From the IMG/VR virus record IMGVR_UViG_3300044878_000051, positions 30,031-94,030 of that record: DNA of 64,000 bases. One strand, written 5' to 3'. Shown here piece by piece: positions 5,020 to 39,250 of this stretch (within the stretch, counting starts at the first letter, position 1; each line of letters starts with the position of its first letter). A program made the translations under genes and the position numbers. Below the pieces are notes generated by a model. That model saw nothing but the letters and a program-made list of their open reading frames with translations. It did not search any database and was not told where the DNA came from. This stretch comes from a virus.

Positions 5020-6591
5020 TTAAATTACATAATCGGTTGTCAAGTACTTGTGACCCACGACCCTACCCGCAAAGTTCTCGACCTTGCGTTCGTGATACTC
5101 GATATGCTTGTCGATGTCGATACACACGAAGTAGTAGAAGGTTGGCTTAGCATCGGGCCAAATCTTAATGATCGTGTCACGTAGACGCCCCATCGCTTGC
5201 AAGTTACCTTGTTTGGAACCCAAGGCATCTGTCATCAACACATGAAGCAACTTAGGGATGTCCTGAGCTGTCCCGAGGGATTTCAGTGTCGACACGATGA
5301 GATCTGCTTCGAGCATTTCGTCGAAGTCGTCATCTGCCGTATACCGCATCACAGTGATGTCACTGTTCCGTGGTTTCAGGTAGTTCGTGACAATGGTGCA
5401 CATCTCAACCGTAGCACAATAGATCAACAGCTTTTGGTCATCCACACGAATCTTGCGAAAGTTGTGGGTAACGAAATCGGAGATCATCTCAAGGTAAGCC
5501 TTGAGGCACTGCTTGTTCTTCATCAACGATTGCTCGAAGATGACGTGACTGTACGACTTACGCGCCTTGTTGATCCACTTAAGGACGTTGTGGTGCCTGA
5601 GCCGGTACTGCAATGCTTCTACTGCGGTGAAGATCACACGCTCACCGTTGTCAATCCGTTCGTCTCGCGGGAACATGATTGCCGTACGGTTAATCAAGAA
5701 CTCGTCGTCACCTTCCAATGTACCGGAGAGTGAGATGGTCTTGTGAACGTGCGTGTACAAGTCTTGCCGATAGTTGAGGTGGATGTCCTGGTGGACTTCG
5801 TCAATCAACCGAATCCCAATCCCACACGTTTGGTAGAAGTTGGGAGGAGTGCAACCGTACCCGAGCTGTAACAAGCCGTCTTTAAACTTCTCGTAGTCCT
5901 TCAGGTAGTTGAAGTACGTCATGTTCGAACAGATGATGATCTTGGCTGTCAACTCGCCTGCAATTGCAAGCTGCGTCACGAGTGCCAGTTGTGCTGACCC
6001 CCGAACAACCATGATGTCACCTTTCTTACACTTGAACGCTGCCTCAATGTCGCCAATCCACTTTTCAATGTACATGGCCTTGATGCAGATGAAAACCCGA
6101 CGCCCAATAGCTGCGATACCACTCAGCGCCATGAATGTCTTACCGCGACCGGGGTCTACGGTGAGGATCTTCGTCTTACCCGGAGCAATCAGGTAAGCGA
6201 TCTTTTCAACTTGGTCATCTCGCGGTGTACGCTTGTCGATTACTTCGAAGTTAACTTCAACCCCGAGGTTCTCAGGCAAGTGCTCGTACACAATGGCGCT
6301 CTCATGAACGCCCCACATTTTCAAGCACCGAAGTAACGCGTCCAGTTCATTCCGATGGAAGTGAAAGTCTGTACGGTCATTCGTAACGCCCACAAAGACC
6401 CGCAGCATGGCTTTTCTGAAACGACCATCAGGCCCCTTCTCAAAGCCGTACTGAGCCAGTGACTTACAGAAGTCAAGCAACGCAGCTTTAACCCGAGGGG
6501 TGAACTGCGTTGCTCTTACGTGGTGACTGGCTACTCTAAGAGTCAGTTCTGGTGCTCTAGCGGTAGGCGGATTCTGGACTTCACTAGACAC
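5020..6591 (-). CDS. SF2 (DExH) helicase (phiKZ gp75-like)
   Basis: Walker A PGRGKT, DEVH, motif III SGT, motif VI QAMGRLR; syntenic with nvRNAP beta'C. Confidence 0.9.
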   Translation of the reverse strand: MSSEVQNPPTARAPELTLRVASHHVRATQFTPRVKAALLDFCKSLAQYGFEKGPDGRFRKAMLRVFVGVTNDRTDFHFHRNELDALLRCLKMWGVHESAIVYEHLPENLGVEVNFEVIDKRTPRDDQVEKIAYLIAPGKTKILTVDPGRGKTFMALSGIAAIGRRVFICIKAMYIEKWIGDIEAAFKCKKGDIMVVRGSAQLALVTQLAIAGELTAKIIICSNMTYFNYLKDYEKFKDGLLQLGYGCTPPNFYQTCGIGIRLIDEVHQDIHLNYRQDLYTHVHKTISLSGTLEGDDEFLINRTAIMFPRDERIDNGERVIFTAVEALQYRLRHHNVLKWINKARKSYSHVIFEQSLMKNKQCLKAYLEMISDFVTHNFRKIRVDDQKLLIYCATVEMCTIVTNYLKPRNSDITVMRYTADDDFDEMLEADLIVSTLKSLGTAQDIPKLLHVLMTDALGSKQGNLQAMGRLRDTIIKIWPDAKPTFYYFVCIDIDKHIEYHERKVENFAGRVVGHKYLTTDYVI

Positions 6592-32897: not shown

Positions 32898-33254
32898 TTA
32901 ACTGTACAGGTACAAACCTGTGGGACGTATATAAAGGATGAGGTTCTCGTTGAACTTTCTAGGGATCAAGAGTTTCGCTATGCGGTTACGCAGAACGTGG
33001 TCTCGATCTAGGAAGCACAACACCCCATGAAGTACAGTGACAAAGTGTGACGGGTATTGTTGCTGAACTATCCTACCAGTCAACTCTTCCACAGTCTCCC
33101 TTAGCCAAAGGTATTCAATCAACCCAACCAATTCCTCGTAGTCTCCGAAGGCTTGTGTCAGGTACTGAAACTTGAGCATCCCCAAGGCTACATCTATATC
33201 GTCTCGCAGGTGTACTTGAATCTGGCGAAACCCTATAACGAATTGGAGCCGCAT
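32898..33254 (-). CDS. Hypothetical protein, paralog of 32531..32887
   Basis: 118 aa; first gene after an early promoter. Confidence 0.75.
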   Translation of the reverse strand: MRLQFVIGFRQIQVHLRDDIDVALGMLKFQYLTQAFGDYEELVGLIEYLWLRETVEELTGRIVQQQYPSHFVTVLHGVLCFLDRDHVLRNRIAKLLIPRKFNENLILYIRPTGLYLYS

Positions 33255-33304: not shown

Positions 33305-33393
33305 CTTCTTCGGATGGCCTGTATGCTCTTTACTCTATATCATCAGGGGTTTGTGTGAACTTATACACGCAGTCGCTCCTGTGAGCTTACAGA

Positions 33394-33435
33394 CGGCATA
33401 AAGCCCAACCACCCTCAGTTGGACTGGGCTTTATG
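33394..33435 (-). terminator. Terminator at the end of the RNA island
   Basis: CATAAAGCCCA...TGGGCTTTATG hairpin; reads ...TTTATGCCG on the minus strand. Confidence 0.75.
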
Positions 33436-33439
33436 TTTT

Positions 33440-34235
33440 ACGCTGGCTTCGGTCGGCTATCCGTGAGTGGAGTCAGGTCCCCTCTCGGCCAACCTAGTGG
33501 GGTCGGAGTAGCCAGGCATGTTTTCCCACCGAGTACCCCTGACGGCACAAGGATTGCGGCTAGAACTTACGCACCCCTCCAATTGCCCGGCTCGGCTGGT
33601 AAAGGTAGGATTCCAATGCGTAAGCGAAGTGCCGAAACACTTCCCCAAGACTATTCAGATCGAACCCGGCCTAGGCACATCCGAATACTCTTGAGGCTGC
33701 GTTCAAGCGTAGGCCCCAACCACTATAGGTGCAGAGGGGGCGGGCTATCGTACAACTTGAACCCTTCGCGGGGGTCCCGTACCCTTTGCCTTACCGGTCG
33801 AGTGCGAGTCAACTTTATAGGGCTTCCTGTAGTACGTCTGCTTATCCAGGGTGAGGTTGCAAACGCCCAACCCTTGCCGGGCTGAGATACGTGACCCCTC
33901 GGGTTCAACCGAGCAGCGACGATTTAAGACCCCCGAACCCACCGGCTCTCTGGACAGAGTAGTCACTAGGTTTTGACCGTGGTCGGGGGAATCAAGCTAC
34001 CCTCTCTCTTTGAGTCGTCTACACTTACGCAATTCCTCGAAAGGCAGCGATTTGGGGTTTGGTCCTAAAAGTAGTAACCATTCCTACGACGTCAGGGGAT
34101 TAGCCTGTGAGGGTACAACTAGGGGTGAGCGGGAAAGCCGAAACCTTCCAGACAGTTAGATGCCCGACGGGGAGGGGCCTGTCCAAGAGTTGGGTAGATA
34201 AAGTCCAACTCAAGACTTACGATACGCTCACTTCT
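33440..34235 (-). ncRNA. Large (~800 nt) highly structured non-coding RNA of unknown class
   Basis: Nested long-range helices and three UUCG hairpins; most G-U pairs favour the minus strand; no credible ORF. Boundaries are approximate. Confidence 0.75.
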
Positions 34236-34238
34236 GGT

Positions 34239-34691
34239 TTAACGACCGCACCAAGAGCGCTTGGTGCCACCGTCGTACGCAACTGCAAGACCATTCTTGA
34301 TCAGCACTTGCGCGATGTCTATATCGTCTACCATGACTTTGGACACGATTCTGAAATACTTGTCACGCTCAGGGGCCACCAGTCTAATAGTGGACGAGGC
34401 GTCGACGTACTTCTTCAGGAGTACCCGAGCTTGACGTGCCTTTGCTTTCTCAGCTTCTTGGTCAGCGACTGCTTTACAAGTGCTGTGCATCTCAGGCGCA
34501 TCAATGCCCGCAAGGCGAATCCCTACGTTCTTTCCGAAGAGGTCAGGAACCTCAGGGATGTTTACGTAGATCGTGTCGCCATCGTAAACTCTCACTACCT
34601 GTTTCGGAGACAACGTCAGATCGCTATAAGCGTAGACGCTGAATGAAGCCAGAGTAAGAATCAGCATTGCAAAGATATTGCGGAAGTTCAT
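34239..34691 (-). CDS. Thermonuclease (SNase-like) with a signal peptide
   Basis: VYDGDT, IRLAGIDAPE, DKYFR and LIKNGLA motifs; N-terminal hydrophobic segment ending VYA. Confidence 0.9.
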   Translation of the reverse strand: MNFRNIFAMLILTLASFSVYAYSDLTLSPKQVVRVYDGDTIYVNIPEVPDLFGKNVGIRLAGIDAPEMHSTCKAVADQEAEKAKARQARVLLKKYVDASSTIRLVAPERDKYFRIVSKVMVDDIDIAQVLIKNGLAVAYDGGTKRSWCGR

Positions 34692-34801
34692 AGTTACGCT
34701 CCAAGGGATATACAACATACTATCACTTGGGTATTCGTGTAGGCACCTGCTTCAGTCCCGCCTTCACCACGCTCTCGGGTGTGCGTCAAACTTAGTCAGG
34801 A

Positions 34802-34872
34802 GGCTCTCTTGTTGGAATCGAACCAACGACGGCGTTCGCGAGTCGCTACTCTACCATTGAGCTAAAGAGAAC
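34802..34872 (-). ncRNA. Degenerate tRNA / tRNA-like RNA with a shortened anticodon arm
   Basis: Canonical D arm (TAGCTCAATGGTAGAG) and T arm (GTTGG-TTCGATT-CCAAC); only a 3-bp anticodon stem. Confidence 0.6.
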
Positions 34873-35084
34873 ACTATTTGAAAGGGTGCCTTCTCTCAGT
34901 GTCGGGATGGGTTCTTTGTTTCCAGCGCAGATCCAAAACTACATTGAGAGAGAAGACATAACTCATTTACCCCATTAGTTCCCCTAGTTCTGATTACCCT
35001 GCGCGTCAGGTCGTTCGTAACTAGGGTAGGCGCGTACTGTCGCCTCGTTTTACTTCTGTTCCCTAAGGAACCTTCTAATGAGCA

Positions 35085-35211
35085 TCCCCGTGCCAAGATT
35101 CGAACTTGGGACCTCCACCGGACCCTCGAGTTAAACCCCCTTCATTACCTAAGTAACTAATGGTGGAACTCAAAGGCCCGACAGTGTTCTAACCGACTGA
35201 ACTAAACGGGG
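35085..35211 (-). ncRNA. tRNA-like RNA with the anticodon arm extended into a long stem
   Basis: Acceptor CCCCGT/ACGGGG, D arm TAGTTCAGTCGGTTAGAAC, T arm CCAAG-TTCGAAT-CTTGG; about 50 extra nt in the anticodon arm. Confidence 0.75.
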
Positions 35212-35220
35212 TTTACAAAT

Positions 35221-35308
35221 TGGCGGAAGCGCAGAGATTCGAACTCTGGGGGCTGTTACACCCGACGGTTTTCAAGACCGTTGCCTTAAACCACTCGGCC
35301 ACGCTTCC
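35221..35308 (-). tRNA. tRNA-Ser(TGA)
   Basis: Full cloverleaf with a long variable arm and encoded CCA. Confidence 0.95.
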
Positions 35309-35641
35309 TAAAACAAGCCCCAGTCCTATTCACCGGGGTAGTCACCATACAGCCAAGGCGTTAGCTGTAGTCCATTGGGAACTGAGCAGGAGTCGAATAG
35401 ACCTCGAATCAGCAAGCTCACCCCATCCACCTAGGACGGAGCAACACGCCACTCTAAGCGCATCGAGGGACATCTCGAACGCAGTGGGTGTGGTTGGGTC
35501 GACACCAGCAGGGCAGGCAGCAGGTGTTCGGGGGTCAGGCTTTCGCCCGATGCAACAGTTTCAGCAATCCCTTAGGGAGTTGCTTAGTCTTCGCCTTACG
35601 ACGAGGGCTAGAGAATGGGAAACCAGGCATGGCTCTCTCCT

Positions 35642-36535
35642 TTACGGCGTGTATTGCCACAGCGCAGCGAGCATTGGTGTATTGCTGCCACCGTGGACGT
35701 AGACCTTCCCGTTGTATGATACGGCAACTGCTTGGAACTGACGCGGGGTATGGGCTTTTAGCTTAATCCACACATTGCTGTCTGGATCGTACTTATAGAT
35801 GTCAGTGTTAGTCTGCGAGTTACCGCCACCGACATACATTTTACCGTCCACGACGCCGGCCCAGTGATCGGAGCGGGCGTTGCCGGTACCCGTGTTAGGC
35901 GCCAATACGCCCCAGGTGTCGGCTACAGTATCGTAGACCCACAGCATGTTGTTGTCAGCACTGGCAAACCCACCATGTAGGTAAATCAGTGTACCGATGG
36001 CAACTACTGTAGCGTCATAGCGAATCTGGGACATCGACGCCTTAGCTGTCCAAGTTCCGGCCACAGGATCGTAACATTGAACTGGTTGTGCAAGAGGCTC
36101 CGTAGTCGATCGACCACCCACCAAGTAAAGCAGACCGCCCACTTCAACCAATGATCCACGTTCGCGTGGGTTGGGTCCGTTAGGCAATTGCGTCCACTGA
36201 TTAGTAGCGGGATCGTACTTCCAGAGATCTTGTGTTCTTTGGCCAGTTGCGGGTAATCCACCATAAAGGTAAATCAACCCATTGACCGAAGCCATCTGTG
36301 ATGCATTTCGCGGTGGCGGACCTACCGCCAATTGCTCTACCAGTCGGGTGTCAAAGTTATACCGTATAAAGCTATCGGTCTTTACGTTCCCGTCCAAAAC
36401 ACCGCCATGGATATATAGCCAACCATCCAGCACTGTACCCGAGTGATCCCGGCGTCCTAAGTCTACATCCCCTAGGCTCACCCAAGAGTCGGTGACGACT
36501 GTGCGACCGCTCACATTTAACATAGCTTCCAGCAT
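35642..36535 (-). CDS. Kelch-repeat beta-propeller protein
   Basis: Six repeats of the (I/L/M/V)YxxGG...Y(D/N)...W pattern; MLEAML start has a GGAG SD. Confidence 0.9.
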   Translation of the reverse strand: MLEAMLNVSGRTVVTDSWVSLGDVDLGRRDHSGTVLDGWLYIHGGVLDGNVKTDSFIRYNFDTRLVEQLAVGPPPRNASQMASVNGLIYLYGGLPATGQRTQDLWKYDPATNQWTQLPNGPNPRERGSLVEVGGLLYLVGGRSTTEPLAQPVQCYDPVAGTWTAKASMSQIRYDATVVAIGTLIYLHGGFASADNNMLWVYDTVADTWGVLAPNTGTGNARSDHWAGVVDGKMYVGGGNSQTNTDIYKYDPDSNVWIKLKAHTPRQFQAVAVSYNGKVYVHGGSNTPMLAALWQYTP

Positions 36536-36626
36536 GAGCGTACTCTCCATATAGACATATCCATACCATGTCTACCTAGAGAGTGCTTACAAAGGACAGT
36601 CAACGATGACTACCCTCTTTAGAATG

Positions 36627-36715
36627 TGGCAGTAGATGAGAGATTCGAACTCTCGAGGCTGTTACACCTACACCCTTAGCAGGGGCGCTCCTTAATCCAT
36701 CTCAGACAATCTACT
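36627..36715 (-). tRNA. tRNA-Ser(GCT)
   Basis: Cloverleaf with anticodon loop CTGCTAA, long variable arm and GCCA end. Confidence 0.9.
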
Positions 36716-36724
36716 GTAAAGTTT

Positions 36725-36872
36725 GATCAATACCCGGTGTGTGGTATGTTTTTTGGTTTGTGTCTTGGCCGCCCAGCCAGGATTTCGGGTTGTACCTGGA
36801 ATGCTACCTCGGAGGGTAGAGTTATACCTTTCGGCGTTTTTAACTATTGGGCTTTGTACCACACCACTGATC
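36725..36872 (-). ncRNA. Putative structured RNA (terminal stem plus four-way junction)
   Basis: Terminal helix, A-rich internal loop, and a closing helix carrying three hairpins. Confidence 0.5.
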
Positions 36873-36898
36873 GTGCTTGAGTTGTTCCCTTTGGTCTG

Positions 36899-37058
36899 TG
36901 CTCTCTGAGGTCGGATTTGAACCGACAATGGCGAACGCTCAAGCCATTACGCTGCACGTTTTGCCGCACCCACAGACAGGCGGCCCTACTAATGGGACCA
37001 GGGCCATTTTGCCAGAAGGCTCAACCCAGGGTATACCAATTCCCCCACTCGAGGGAAC
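36899..37058 (-). ncRNA. tRNA-Leu-like RNA with an expanded central region
   Basis: D arm GTGGGGGAATTGGTATACCC and T arm GTCGG-TTCAAAT-CCGAC, separated by about 105 nt. Confidence 0.6.
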
Positions 37059-37069
37059 AACTCATTGCT

Positions 37070-37144
37070 TGGCTCCGAGACCTGGGTTCGAACCAGGGAC
37101 CCAACGGTTAACAGCCGTTTGCTCTACCACTGAGCTATCTCGGA
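37070..37144 (-). tRNA. tRNA-Asn(GTT)
   Basis: Canonical cloverleaf with encoded CCA. Confidence 0.95.
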
Positions 37145-37152
37145 ATGAAACT

Positions 37153-37335
37153 TTAGGACGCCTTCAGAACTTCAGCGACCTTGATCTCGCGATCGTCGTA
37201 GACAACGCGCCGAGCTTGCTCACCGTCTTGTAGGGTGAACGTCTCGTACACTTCGCCTGTGACGCGATTCACGACCATCACATGGACTTCTTTATCGGAG
37301 GCGCAATGGGCTTCCGTAATAACGGTGGTAGTCAT
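37153..37335 (-). CDS. Small hypothetical protein
   Basis: 60 aa with an AAGGAG SD. Confidence 0.7.
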   Translation of the reverse strand: MTTTVITEAHCASDKEVHVMVVNRVTGEVYETFTLQDGEQARRVVYDDREIKVAEVLKAS

Positions 37336-37344
37336 GATGACTCC

Positions 37345-38169
37345 TTAACGACGGTTGCGGTTCATAACCTTGGCTTCGAGTTCAACGAACAACTCCATCG
37401 GGTAATCTTCCGGAAGGTTCACCGACACCGAAGTGTTGAAGGTTTCCGGGTTGATACCGATGCTGAACGGAGCTGCGGCTTGGCTACCGAGCGTACCGTT
37501 GATGATCCACTCGCCTTTGTGGCGAATAGGTCGTGAGTGGTTGATCGCAACTTCCACACCGTCACGGGTGACGATACGGATCAGCTTGATGGACTCGAGG
37601 GAGTCAGTGAGGTCCAGATCAACCCCAGTGCCACGGATCAAGACGAACAAGCTCTTGCGGTCACCATCCTTCAGCGGGATGCGAACCACGTCAGAACCGG
37701 GAGCTTCCACAACCTCTTCCAGGATCTGCCAGTCGTCAGCCAATTGATCCGACTGAGCCGGAATCCACGGGGTGAACATGTTCTGCGCAGTGCGCATGCC
37801 GATCCACGGAGCGAGTGTCGGACACTCGTTCTGACCGGGCTTGTAACCGATGGTCGCGCAACCCACGTCGTAATGACCAGGGGCAACGTAGACCAGCCAC
37901 ATGTTCTTACCGTTCCACGAAGGACGGGTAACACGCTTGCCTTGCTTCAGGGCTTCGATAGCCAGGCCGAAGTTCAAAGCATCGCTAGGACGATAGCTGT
38001 CCTCGAACACGGCTTTCGGCGACCAAGACTGGTGACCGTTGTCGTATTCAACCAGGTAGCCTTCGTCGGCACCATTTTCGTCAGCAGGGAGTTCCCAGCC
38101 TTTGAGTTGATTGTAATCCAACCGAGACATGGGTGTTCCGGTAACGCGCTTGGTACCGATGTAGTTCAT
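37345..38169 (-). CDS. tad2: Multidomain protein containing a Tad2/DUF2829 signal-sponge domain
   Basis: FGLAIEALKQGKRVTRPSWNGKNMW...PWIPAQSDQLADDW is the DUF2829 signature; extra N- and C-terminal domains. Confidence 0.8.
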   Translation of the reverse strand: MNYIGTKRVTGTPMSRLDYNQLKGWELPADENGADEGYLVEYDNGHQSWSPKAVFEDSYRPSDALNFGLAIEALKQGKRVTRPSWNGKNMWLVYVAPGHYDVGCATIGYKPGQNECPTLAPWIGMRTAQNMFTPWIPAQSDQLADDWQILEEVVEAPGSDVVRIPLKDGDRKSLFVLIRGTGVDLDLTDSLESIKLIRIVTRDGVEVAINHSRPIRHKGEWIINGTLGSQAAAPFSIGINPETFNTSVSVNLPEDYPMELFVELEAKVMNRNRR

Positions 38170-38178
38170 GGTCAATCC

Positions 38179-38340
38179 TTAACAGATCATGATAGGCACT
38201 GGTATGCCCTGTTCTTTGCAAACACGCTCGAGGTTCTCCTGAGCTGCTCGCCATTGTTCTAGCCTTGCGAGGGTTTCCTCACGAGACTTCGGATTGATCT
38301 TGGAACGATCCAGATCACTTAAGCGAAATGTACGTACCAT
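38179..38340 (-). CDS. Small hypothetical protein
   Basis: MVRTF start with an AAGGAG SD; 53 aa. Confidence 0.65.
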   Translation of the reverse strand: MVRTFRLSDLDRSKINPKSREETLARLEQWRAAQENLERVCKEQGIPVPIMIC

Positions 38341-38432
38341 GATCGACTCCTTGAATTTGGTGGTCAGTACCGGGCTCTTAACCGGCTGCATCGACAAGCC
38401 ACGACTGCCCCGACTCGTAAGCAGTGAAGGTT

Positions 38433-38527
38433 TCTAACGTAGAGCGCTTTAACCTGACTAAGCTATCAGCCCTGTTAGGCGGACCGTCCGAGACAAGGGA
38501 TCTGAACCCAAGTTCTCTCTACGTTGA
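38433..38527 (-). ncRNA. Circularly permuted tRNA-like element (YrlA Y-RNA topology)
   Basis: Order is 5' stem, T arm, loop-closed acceptor stem, D arm, 3' stem; 9-bp AACGTAGAG/CTCTACGTT closing helix. Confidence 0.6.
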
Positions 38528-38665
38528 TTTTCTGAAGTTGACAAGGGAGAAAGGCGGCTCGTTTTATCTCCCGACTTGTACCCATGCACCTTAATGAACC
38601 ACTGGGCGGCTCCTTTGAGTGCGGTTCGGTCTGTACCCTACCGTCTGTCAATCAACTTCAAAAAG

Positions 38666-38742
38666 TGGCGCCTCCGAACGGACTCGAACCGTCGACCCCT
38701 AGCGTGACAGGCTAGTGCTCTAACCAACTGAGCTACGGAAGC
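38666..38742 (-). tRNA. tRNA-Asp(GTC)
   Basis: Canonical cloverleaf with encoded CCA. Confidence 0.95.
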
Positions 38743-38817
38743 GTAAAAGGTCCCACTGGGCTTGCATCGAGCTAACGGCGAACCGTTTGGTGCAAGAGCT
38801 GATCCAGCAGGATGTAG

Positions 38818-38899
38818 GGTGGAACCACCGGGAATCAAACCCGATTAGCCCGATCGACCTTTCAGCCTATCAGTCGCTTTAACATTAAGCTATAGTCCC
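38818..38899 (-). ncRNA. tRNA-like RNA with a G3:U70 acceptor and a GAAA-capped anticodon arm
   Basis: Acceptor GGGACTA/TGGTTCC+A; D and T arms present; anticodon loop replaced by GGCT-GAAA-GGTC. Confidence 0.65.
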
Positions 38900-39164
38900 G
38901 GAAATGGCTCCGGCTTGCTCCCCACCGCTATCGTGGTTCACTAAACTCATGTGTAGCCAGACGACCCGCCGGAGAGGTCTTTAACTAGATGTACCAGTAA
39001 TCCTGAGGTTCCGAAGAAGGCAGGCACACGATGCAACTCCACTGGACTACGAGTAGGGTGATCCTTCCCCGCATTCGACGCGGGAATTAATGCTGAGGCG
39101 CGCCCGTCACCGACATTCGCTCAAAAGGCAAGTCTAATTAGGCGCACAGCAAAGGATCGTGAAA

Positions 39165-39250
39165 TGGTGGGTGAGGTAGGATTCGAACCTACGAAGCACA
39201 CGGCGTCAGATTTACAATCTGATAACTTTGAACCACTTGTATACTCACCC
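39165..39250 (-). tRNA. tRNA-Tyr(GTA)
   Basis: Cloverleaf with a variable arm and ACCA end. Confidence 0.93.

Follow-up and report, generated by a model that had tools for sequence, protein, structure and literature searches.

Structured RNAs of very large size whose function is unknown are rare. The closest described systems to the RNA reported here are GOLLD and ROOL, phage RNAs that occur near tRNA islands (downstream of a tRNA in the case of GOLLD env-38) and that both form RNA-only cages (PMC12286853). The 3′ region of GOLLD is universally conserved and its 5′ region less so (PMC12286853). Candidate structured RNAs were also listed from IMG/VR in 2023, as motifs of 30–151 nt only.

Here, we analyzed a 64,000-nt stretch of viral DNA, referred to throughout as the window. 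A first-pass annotation had proposed that a nucleus-forming phage encodes a giant structured RNA, non-coding and co-oriented with the tRNAs; this proposal is supported by covariation, by a bias toward G-U pairs, and by matches of the phage to PHROGs for a nuclear shell protein and for split subunits of RNA polymerase. Comparison of homologues shows that positions 33399–34236 of the minus strand correspond to a predicted gene for one large (~830 nt), multi-domain, base-paired non-coding RNA. The family is not catalogued in Rfam 15, and we found no published description of it in the literature. The current study defined the two forms of the RNA, its abutment on tRNA-Leu, and its absence from sister phages that lack tRNAs. 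In the reading that best explains the whole, to which we assign a probability of roughly 0.6, a minus-strand gene forms the last element of a tRNA island and encodes one large RNA, which is probably freed by tRNA processing and may act in trans as a particle.

Results

Host phage and genomic setting

The window derives from a 94-kb IMG/VR virus record that is ~34% complete. The host phage is an uncultured chimallivirus that encodes a nuclear shell protein, or chimallin (PHROG 4795, E = 5e-112), and split RNA polymerase β subunits (PHROGs 3015 and 3295). The combination of chimallin with split multisubunit RNA polymerases places the phage in the Chimalliviridae. The phage also encodes a family-B DNA polymerase and a tail sheath, and its chimallin is ~31% identical to that of the closest cultured relative, Xanthomonas phage LucasX.

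The tRNA island occupies 34802–39250 on the minus strand, where ARAGORN and Rfam each detect six tRNAs with five in common. As the first-pass annotation had proposed, the large RNA stands at the end of this island; it is the last (3′) element on the same strand, following six to seven minus-strand tRNAs. Between tRNA genes of the island lie genes for a protein with a Tad2-like (anti-Thoeris) domain and for a Kelch-repeat protein (37345–38175 and 35642–36550, respectively, minus strand). The element at 38820–38899 (minus strand), which scores 36.6 bits with the Rfam tRNA model and receives no ARAGORN call, may be a non-canonical tRNA-like element. At two homologous loci (L003, 5484–5562; L023, 14209–14287), ARAGORN reports a tRNA of unassigned identity with a two-base “anticodon” (tc).

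Directly upstream of the RNA lies a gene for an SNase-family nuclease (34239–34718, minus strand; Pfam PF00565, E = 2.8e-11). The RNA gene (33399–34236, minus strand) spans from a few nucleotides before helix P1, with an uncertainty of ~10 nt at its 5′ end, to the end of a terminator hairpin. The first-pass annotation had noted about 800 nt with no credible ORF between the SNase stop codon and a terminator, and this is borne out by the ~830 nt that separate the SNase gene from the hairpin terminator at 33400–33433. The terminator hairpin (AAAGCCCA..UGGGCUUU) is followed by a short U tract, and its stem becomes AAAGCCCCU..GAGGGGCUUU in L002, L021, and L024. A consensus scan found the terminator on the plus strand only, where the T tract is longer.

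Beyond the terminator and outside the folded RNA is a conserved motif, UUAUGCCGUCUGUAAG (33386–33401, minus strand), which is present in 8/8 loci and in a more distant locus, L066. In L066, the motif (U)UAUGCCG(U) also follows the tRNA-island terminator (5570–5580 and 6140–6150) and no large RNA is present. The motif UUAUGCCGUCUGUAAG is possibly the start signal of the next transcription unit, and we take (U)UAUGCCG(U), as a guess, to be a TATG-type phage polymerase promoter. Every locus has the same succession of hairpin, UUAUGCCGUCU, promoter-like site, and array of small genes. The promoter-like sequence in the window, TTCACA-16-TAGAGT at 33332–33359 (minus strand), carries a conserved ACCCCUGAU..UAUAGAG block, is also found in genomes G002 and G003, and precedes an array of small paralogous genes (32898–33254 and leftwards).

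Homologues and two forms of the RNA

Seven homologues of the window RNA were identified in five IMG/VR records and two metagenome contigs, giving eight sequences with the window. Searches with the SNase protein and exact conserved words yielded three of the IMG/VR records and the two contigs; BLAST of records found through chimallin yielded the two others. Three loci (L002, L021, and L024) are homologous to the RNA gene over its full length and, together with the window, constitute type A (~830 nt). Four loci share homology in the core and constitute type B (~640 nt): L003, L023, L031 (the complete 244-kb genome G002), and L032 (genome G003). The two forms have in common a 240-nt 5′ domain and a central domain, to which type A adds an internal module of ~100 nt and a 3′ domain of ~180 nt. 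The order and spacing of modules are fixed in 8/8 copies.

Each related genome that extends over the locus retains the RNA. The carriers are all uncultured; the relatives were found in sediment, wastewater, and other metagenomes. Contigs of 3.7 kb that span the RNA and its flanks occur in runs X6 and X7, whose label “RNA-Seq cDNA” is a guess and in which DNA may be present; no RNA dataset is listed as containing the RNA stretch. Logan and ENA contigs exist with DNA polymerases that are 87–92% identical. A scan of chimallin alignments revealed no new records, and a search with the downstream 118-aa ORF revealed no relatives of that ORF.

Distribution across chimalliviruses and other genomes

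A covariance model of the 5′ core, designated R1 (168 positions), scores 175–201 bits on the known copies. R1 found no match in five cultured chimalliviruses (Xanthomonas phages LucasX, RTH11, and Xoo-sp14; Erwinia phage AH06; and KpGz_1) or in the sister-clade records G006–G010. The sister genomes G006, G007 (100% complete), and G008, which are the records behind L061–L063, are ~222 kb in length, contain zero tRNA genes, and encode DNA polymerases with identities of 61–64%. The RNA-bearing genomes G002 and G003 contain 12 and 9 tRNAs, respectively, all within one island whose 3′ end is formed by the RNA. Since the tRNA-less sisters lack the RNA and the RNA-bearing clade has 9–12 tRNAs, the island and the large RNA appear together. 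In a more distant pair, L066 and L067, a two-tRNA island ends in a plain terminator and the conserved motif, and the large RNA is absent. The absence of the RNA from the sister genomes and from L066 and L067 indicates that it is a lineage-specific addition to the tRNA island.

The failure of R1 to match G001 is uninformative in that the contig stops 3.7 kb past chimallin and the RNA lies ~9 kb from chimallin. A pattern scan of 185,579 prokaryote genomes returned 5 matches, all attributable to chance (~8 were expected from the size of the pattern, and R1 was negative there). Comparison with 50,697 GenBank phages by blastn, using the whole region or the 5′ domain (E ≤ 1), gave no match. Every phage in which the RNA family was found belongs to one small, uncultured group of nucleus-forming phages, to which the family appears to be confined.

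Coding status and strand

The eight copies contain no conserved ORF: most frames in most copies have 8–17 stops, and no ORF is common to the copies. Substitutions in the RNA region number 52/43/50 over positions modulo 3, compared with 24/7/48 in the SNase gene, and the RNA region lacks codon periodicity. Indels are many and mostly 1–2 nt in length. The G+C content of the RNA region is 0.55–0.58, compared with ~0.46 in the genes to its left.

We considered whether the region might encode a protein, in the standard or an altered code, or might simply be a structured 3′ UTR of great length or an insulator that sets the tRNA operon apart from the promoter that follows. The region does lie between two transcription units, and the plus strand contains an ORF of 150 aa (33433–33885). 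However, this ORF has no Pfam match and is kept in no homologue, and the stops, the missing periodicity, and the frequent frameshifting indels argue against translation. Invariant 27-nt blocks and at least 40 covarying pairs far exceed the needs of a spacer or terminator, and in L066 a simple terminator closes the same island. We regard this as the least likely of the explanations considered. Two smaller candidates were also dropped: a small ORF in the 5′ domain, which has no start codon in type B, and a CCCCAA motif reminiscent of a telomerase template, the context of which lends it no support.

Assignment of the RNA to the minus strand follows from the pairing itself, because G-U cells exceed A-C cells by 80 to 13. 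The first-pass annotation had placed the RNA in the same orientation as the tRNAs, and this ratio agrees.

Covariation and folding energy

Evidence for structure comes from the eight sequences, which represent three lineages. Standard pairs account for 96.9% of cells in the 5′ domain, where 21/61 pairs are changed on both sides. Control alignments in which partners were slid by 1–3 columns are 34–46% paired with 0–5 doubly changed pairs, and 0/500 shuffles reach the observed score. The central domain has 22/43 predicted pairs changed on both sides in the same eight sequences. Analyzed alone, the 640-nt form has 49/155 doubly changed pairs and a covariation term of −18.9 kcal/mol. The covariation among homologues that the first-pass annotation had named as a check is therefore present in both conserved domains. 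Compensatory pairs together with the absence of a coding signal place the RNA among structured non-coding RNAs.

Folding energy, which had been suggested as a further check, is no better for the window RNA than for shuffled sequences (z = −1.31 over its full length and −0.40 in the 5′ domain; neither is significant). Because folding energy is unremarkable, the evidence for structure is comparative rather than thermodynamic. The single-sequence minimum free energy (MFE) fold of the 5′ domain yields the same helices as covariation.

Architecture of the conserved 5′ domain

The conserved 5′ domain (33992–34231, minus strand; ~240 nt) was delineated by alignments, covariation, and the MFE fold. 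Among the six closer copies, it contains blocks as long as 27 nt that do not vary, and segments such as GUCGUAGGAA, AACCCCAAAUC, and AAGUGUAGAC are invariant in 8/8 copies. The blocks that are invariant in all eight copies measure 10–11 nt, although chimallin is just 70–75% identical between lineages.

The first sub-domain (34125–34231) is closed by helix P1, in which GUGAGCG (34225–34231) pairs with CGCUCAC (34125–34131); one P1 pair is C-G in three sequences and U-A in four. Within this sub-domain are three hairpins: 34188–34210; 34162–34178, which is enclosed by GGACAG/CUGUCU; and a UUCG hairpin at 34132–34149. The second sub-domain (33998–34115) is closed by UACCCUC/GAGGGUA (34109–34115 with 33998–34004), a helix in which 4/7 pairs are changed on both sides. 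Its hairpins are CAGG/CCUG, UGGUU..GACCA, and one of variable length with its tip at 34035–34044, and UGG/CCA in four sequences is replaced by CUG/CAG in the other four.

The long invariant blocks of the 5′ domain are unpaired, which would suit an RNA that acts as a decoy or sponge for a host RNA-binding protein, ribonuclease, or RNA-sensing defence and thereby protects phage tRNAs and mRNAs outside the phage nucleus. Chimalliviruses shield their DNA but not their RNA, and the Tad2-like anti-Thoeris gene of the island (PF11195, E = 4e-23) would fit the same picture. On the other side, a search for motifs of known protein-binding RNAs found none, and features at the level of sequence do not separate a decoy from our preferred explanation. 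We consider the decoy improbable, placing it below the proposal of separate small RNAs discussed below.

Architecture of the central and 3′ regions

The 830-nt form carries an insertion at 33896–33991 that is present in the window, L002, L021, and L024. It includes a hairpin whose loop contains ACCUAGU (33965–33971); the 640-nt form has a different hairpin at this place. The loop sequence is complementary to ACUAGGU at 33492–33498, ~470 nt away in the 830-nt form, and both elements are invariant. Another loop-loop complementarity, UGCGAG/CUCGCA, occurs in 5/8 copies and is absent from the window; its bases are also invariant. Covariation in eight sequences is silent on these loop-loop pairs because their bases do not vary.

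The central domain (33621–33895, minus strand), in which the 22/43 doubly changed pairs reside, is common to both forms. It comprises hairpins at 33866–33886, 33835–33865, 33778–33823 (with an invariant loop, CUCGCA, at 33803–33808), and 33759–33777 (with a GCGAA loop), and its invariant segments are CAAGUUGU and GCAGCCU. An 18-position local helix, 33643–33660 with 33679–33696, had been proposed from the window and proves to be well founded; 9 of its pairs are changed on both sides among four sequences. The tip of this long hairpin (33643–33696) bears GGCC (33668–33671), which is kept in 8/8 copies, while the closing stem varies freely. Adjacent to it is the hairpin GAAGUG-UUUCGG-CACUUC (33626–33643), the stem of which reads UUUAC/GUAAA in L021; in the 640-nt form, it is GAAGCA/UGCUUC or GAAGCG/CGCUUC. 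The latter hairpin is one of three that the first-pass annotation had recognized by their UUCG loops. The stems at 33626–33643 and 34132–34149 covary, and 34035–34044 is the tip of the variable-length hairpin, the stem of which covaries as well; the UUCG loop itself is not conserved.

The 3′ domain (33441–33620, minus strand) is specific to the 830-nt form and nearly invariant among its four copies. Its local helices include CGCUUACGCA with UGCGUAAG, in which a U-A pair becomes G-C in L021 and L024, and the hairpin at 33529–33553, in which U-A stands in place of C-G and A-U in place of G-C, both in L024 and in the contigs of runs X6 and X7.

Long-range pairing and the unity of the RNA

The first-pass annotation had envisaged a nested long-range “zipper” of six helices that joins the two ends of the molecule. 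All six complementarities exist in the window, yet 0 of their pairs are doubly changed in the four full-length homologues. In helices 1, 2, 4, and 6, pairing is lost as one arm changes without the other. Helices 3 and 4 compete with covarying local hairpins, in which CAGG/CCUG is replaced by CCGG/CCGG and CUGG/CCAG, and GCC..GGU by GCU..AGC. Helix 6 competes with the covarying local helix CGCUUACGCA/UGCGUAAG (~33565). In the 640-nt form, the 3′ partners of the zipper are all missing and the 5′ arms are unchanged. Comparison thus does not uphold the zipper, and four of its six helices are contradicted.

All helices that covariation supports are local, the largest closing 118 nt, and none that spans the whole molecule gains support from covariation in the eight sequences. 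The case for one RNA therefore relies on the contiguity of the modules, on their fixed order, and on the absence of terminators between them. A candidate 12-bp pairing between the 5′ and 3′ parts of the 830-nt form (34149–34155 with 33457–33463 and 34164–34168 with 33452–33456) has undergone two changes only, each one-sided and wobble-compatible.

Since no domain-spanning helix is proven, the main competing explanation stands: the region may encode a string of separate small structured RNAs, corresponding to the two 5′ sub-domains, the central hairpins, and the 3′ module, that are cut from the tRNA-island transcript in the manner of tRNAs. The local character of the supported helices, the gain and loss of modules between the 830-nt and 640-nt forms, and the collapse of the long-range helices all favor this alternative. 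Weighing against it, the modules are joined without unconserved spacers, internal terminators, or tRNA-like cleavage signals, and their order and spacing are the same in 8/8 copies. The 12-bp complementarity and the loop-loop complementarity across 470 nt, both in the 830-nt form, likewise suggest a single molecule. We consider separate RNAs unlikely, although this is the most serious competitor to a single large RNA.

The junction with the tRNA island

In three relatives, the RNA abuts a tRNA. The tRNA-Leu(UAA) gene ends at position 1752 in L031, 1688 in L032, and 281 in L024, and the RNA starts at 1748, 1684, and 285, respectively, such that the RNA and helix P1 begin 4–5 nt after the encoded CCA. 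An SNase gene is present between the last tRNA and the RNA in five loci and absent in L024, L031, and L032; it is an insertion between tRNA and RNA. The sequence ACCAGAAG is kept at the junction both with and without the SNase gene. In the window, a perfect hairpin, CACCAAG-CGCU-CUUGGUG, is formed by the last codons of the SNase gene (34245–34275, minus strand), immediately ahead of its stop codon and of the 5′ end of the RNA.

This arrangement suggests a model in which the RNA has no promoter of its own, is transcribed together with the tRNAs, and ends at its own hairpin terminator, and in which its 5′ end would be cut free by the normal 3′-end processing of the preceding tRNA. We regard this origin of the RNA as probable. 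Such tRNA-linked processing cannot be the whole story in the window, because the SNase gene lies between the RNA and the nearest tRNA.

Comparison with catalogued RNA families

Searches of Rfam 15 with cmscan, covering the RNA region of the window (E ≤ 10), 11 kb around it (E ≤ 1), and four homologous loci (E ≤ 1), returned tRNAs and noise only. The RNA is thus a new class rather than a catalogued one and, as judged by the Rfam models, is neither GOLLD nor ROOL. Matches to OLE, HEARO, RNase P, tmRNA, group I and II introns, and raiA were likewise absent in searches with the Rfam models or the tmRNA search of ARAGORN.

The size of the RNA, its multi-helix junctions, and the invariant sequences of these junctions are typical of large ribozymes, raising the idea that it might process the island transcript or itself. 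The Rfam ribozyme, RNase P, and intron models remain unmatched even at E ≤ 10. The flanks contain no split gene that would accommodate an intron, and in L031 the RNA lies between a tRNA and a terminator. A ribozyme is therefore, in our judgment, very unlikely.

Discussion

The invariant unpaired blocks, the invariant GGCC tip, and the loop-loop complementarities hint at conserved contacts. In the single-RNA reading that we favor, the long blocks of the 5′ domain that are both invariant and unpaired may be surfaces for partner binding or tertiary contacts. By analogy with GOLLD and ROOL, the mature RNA may be a stable folded particle that acts in trans and possibly self-associates, and it would serve the purpose of the tRNA island, namely the takeover or protection of translation during infection. 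We offer this role tentatively and hold it as considerably more doubtful than the processing model. The scaffold, cage, or ribozyme suggested by the first-pass annotation is speculative. It is tempting to speculate further that the RNA is a third, sequence-unrelated class of self-assembling RNA-only particle besides GOLLD and ROOL, specific to nucleus-forming phages. Such a particle would be made from the tRNA-island transcript and work with phage tRNAs, for instance as their escort or shield on the way between phage nucleus and cytoplasm, and the GGCC tip and complementary loops would provide contacts between copies. This extended version is quite unlikely as a whole, more so than the existence of separate small RNAs and slightly less so than the decoy.

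If the proposed reading is true, a further class of RNA with no sequence relationship to the known ones shares their genomic habit as the last gene of a phage tRNA island, and tRNA-adjacent giant RNAs would be a recurrent phage invention. It would also provide a second setting in which to ask what giant RNAs do, in phages that separate transcription from translation by a protein nucleus. The natural 830-nt and 640-nt forms would then constitute a ready-made deletion series.

Three known systems bear comparison with the RNA. The first is tRNA-punctuated processing, in which tRNA-processing enzymes define the ends of neighboring RNAs. The position of the RNA 4–5 nt after the tRNA CCA in three relatives resembles this arrangement, with ends that are predicted from the genes; the window differs in that the SNase gene intervenes.

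The second system, GOLLD, shares with the window RNA a length of more than 800 nt, an ornate multi-domain fold, phage encoding at or beside tRNA islands, and the division into a conserved and a variable half. The first-pass annotation had entertained membership in GOLLD or ROOL. One may still imagine a GOLLD or ROOL so diverged that it escapes the Rfam models, given the same size class, the phage location, and the place beside tRNAs. Against this, the models are unmatched by the window RNA at E ≤ 10 and by four other copies at E ≤ 1, no shared sequence motifs with GOLLD were detected, and the halves are reversed: the window RNA is conserved in its 5′ part (240 nt) and varies between forms in its 3′ part, whereas GOLLD is conserved in its 3′ region. 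We judge such divergence to be slightly less credible even than a ribozyme. GOLLD differs further in that the hosts of the window RNA are nucleus-forming chimalliviruses.

ROOL, the third system, is similarly a large RNA of phages and prophages that often lies near tRNA islands and has no known protein partner, and the 640-nt form is close to it in length. The differences are that the Rfam model is unmatched and that the family of the window RNA is limited to one phage clade. ROOL is defined by multiple pseudoknots; in the family of the window RNA, the candidates for such contacts are loop-loop complementarities between invariant bases. The likeness of the window RNA, known from sequence alone, to the cages formed by GOLLD and ROOL is one of size and setting.
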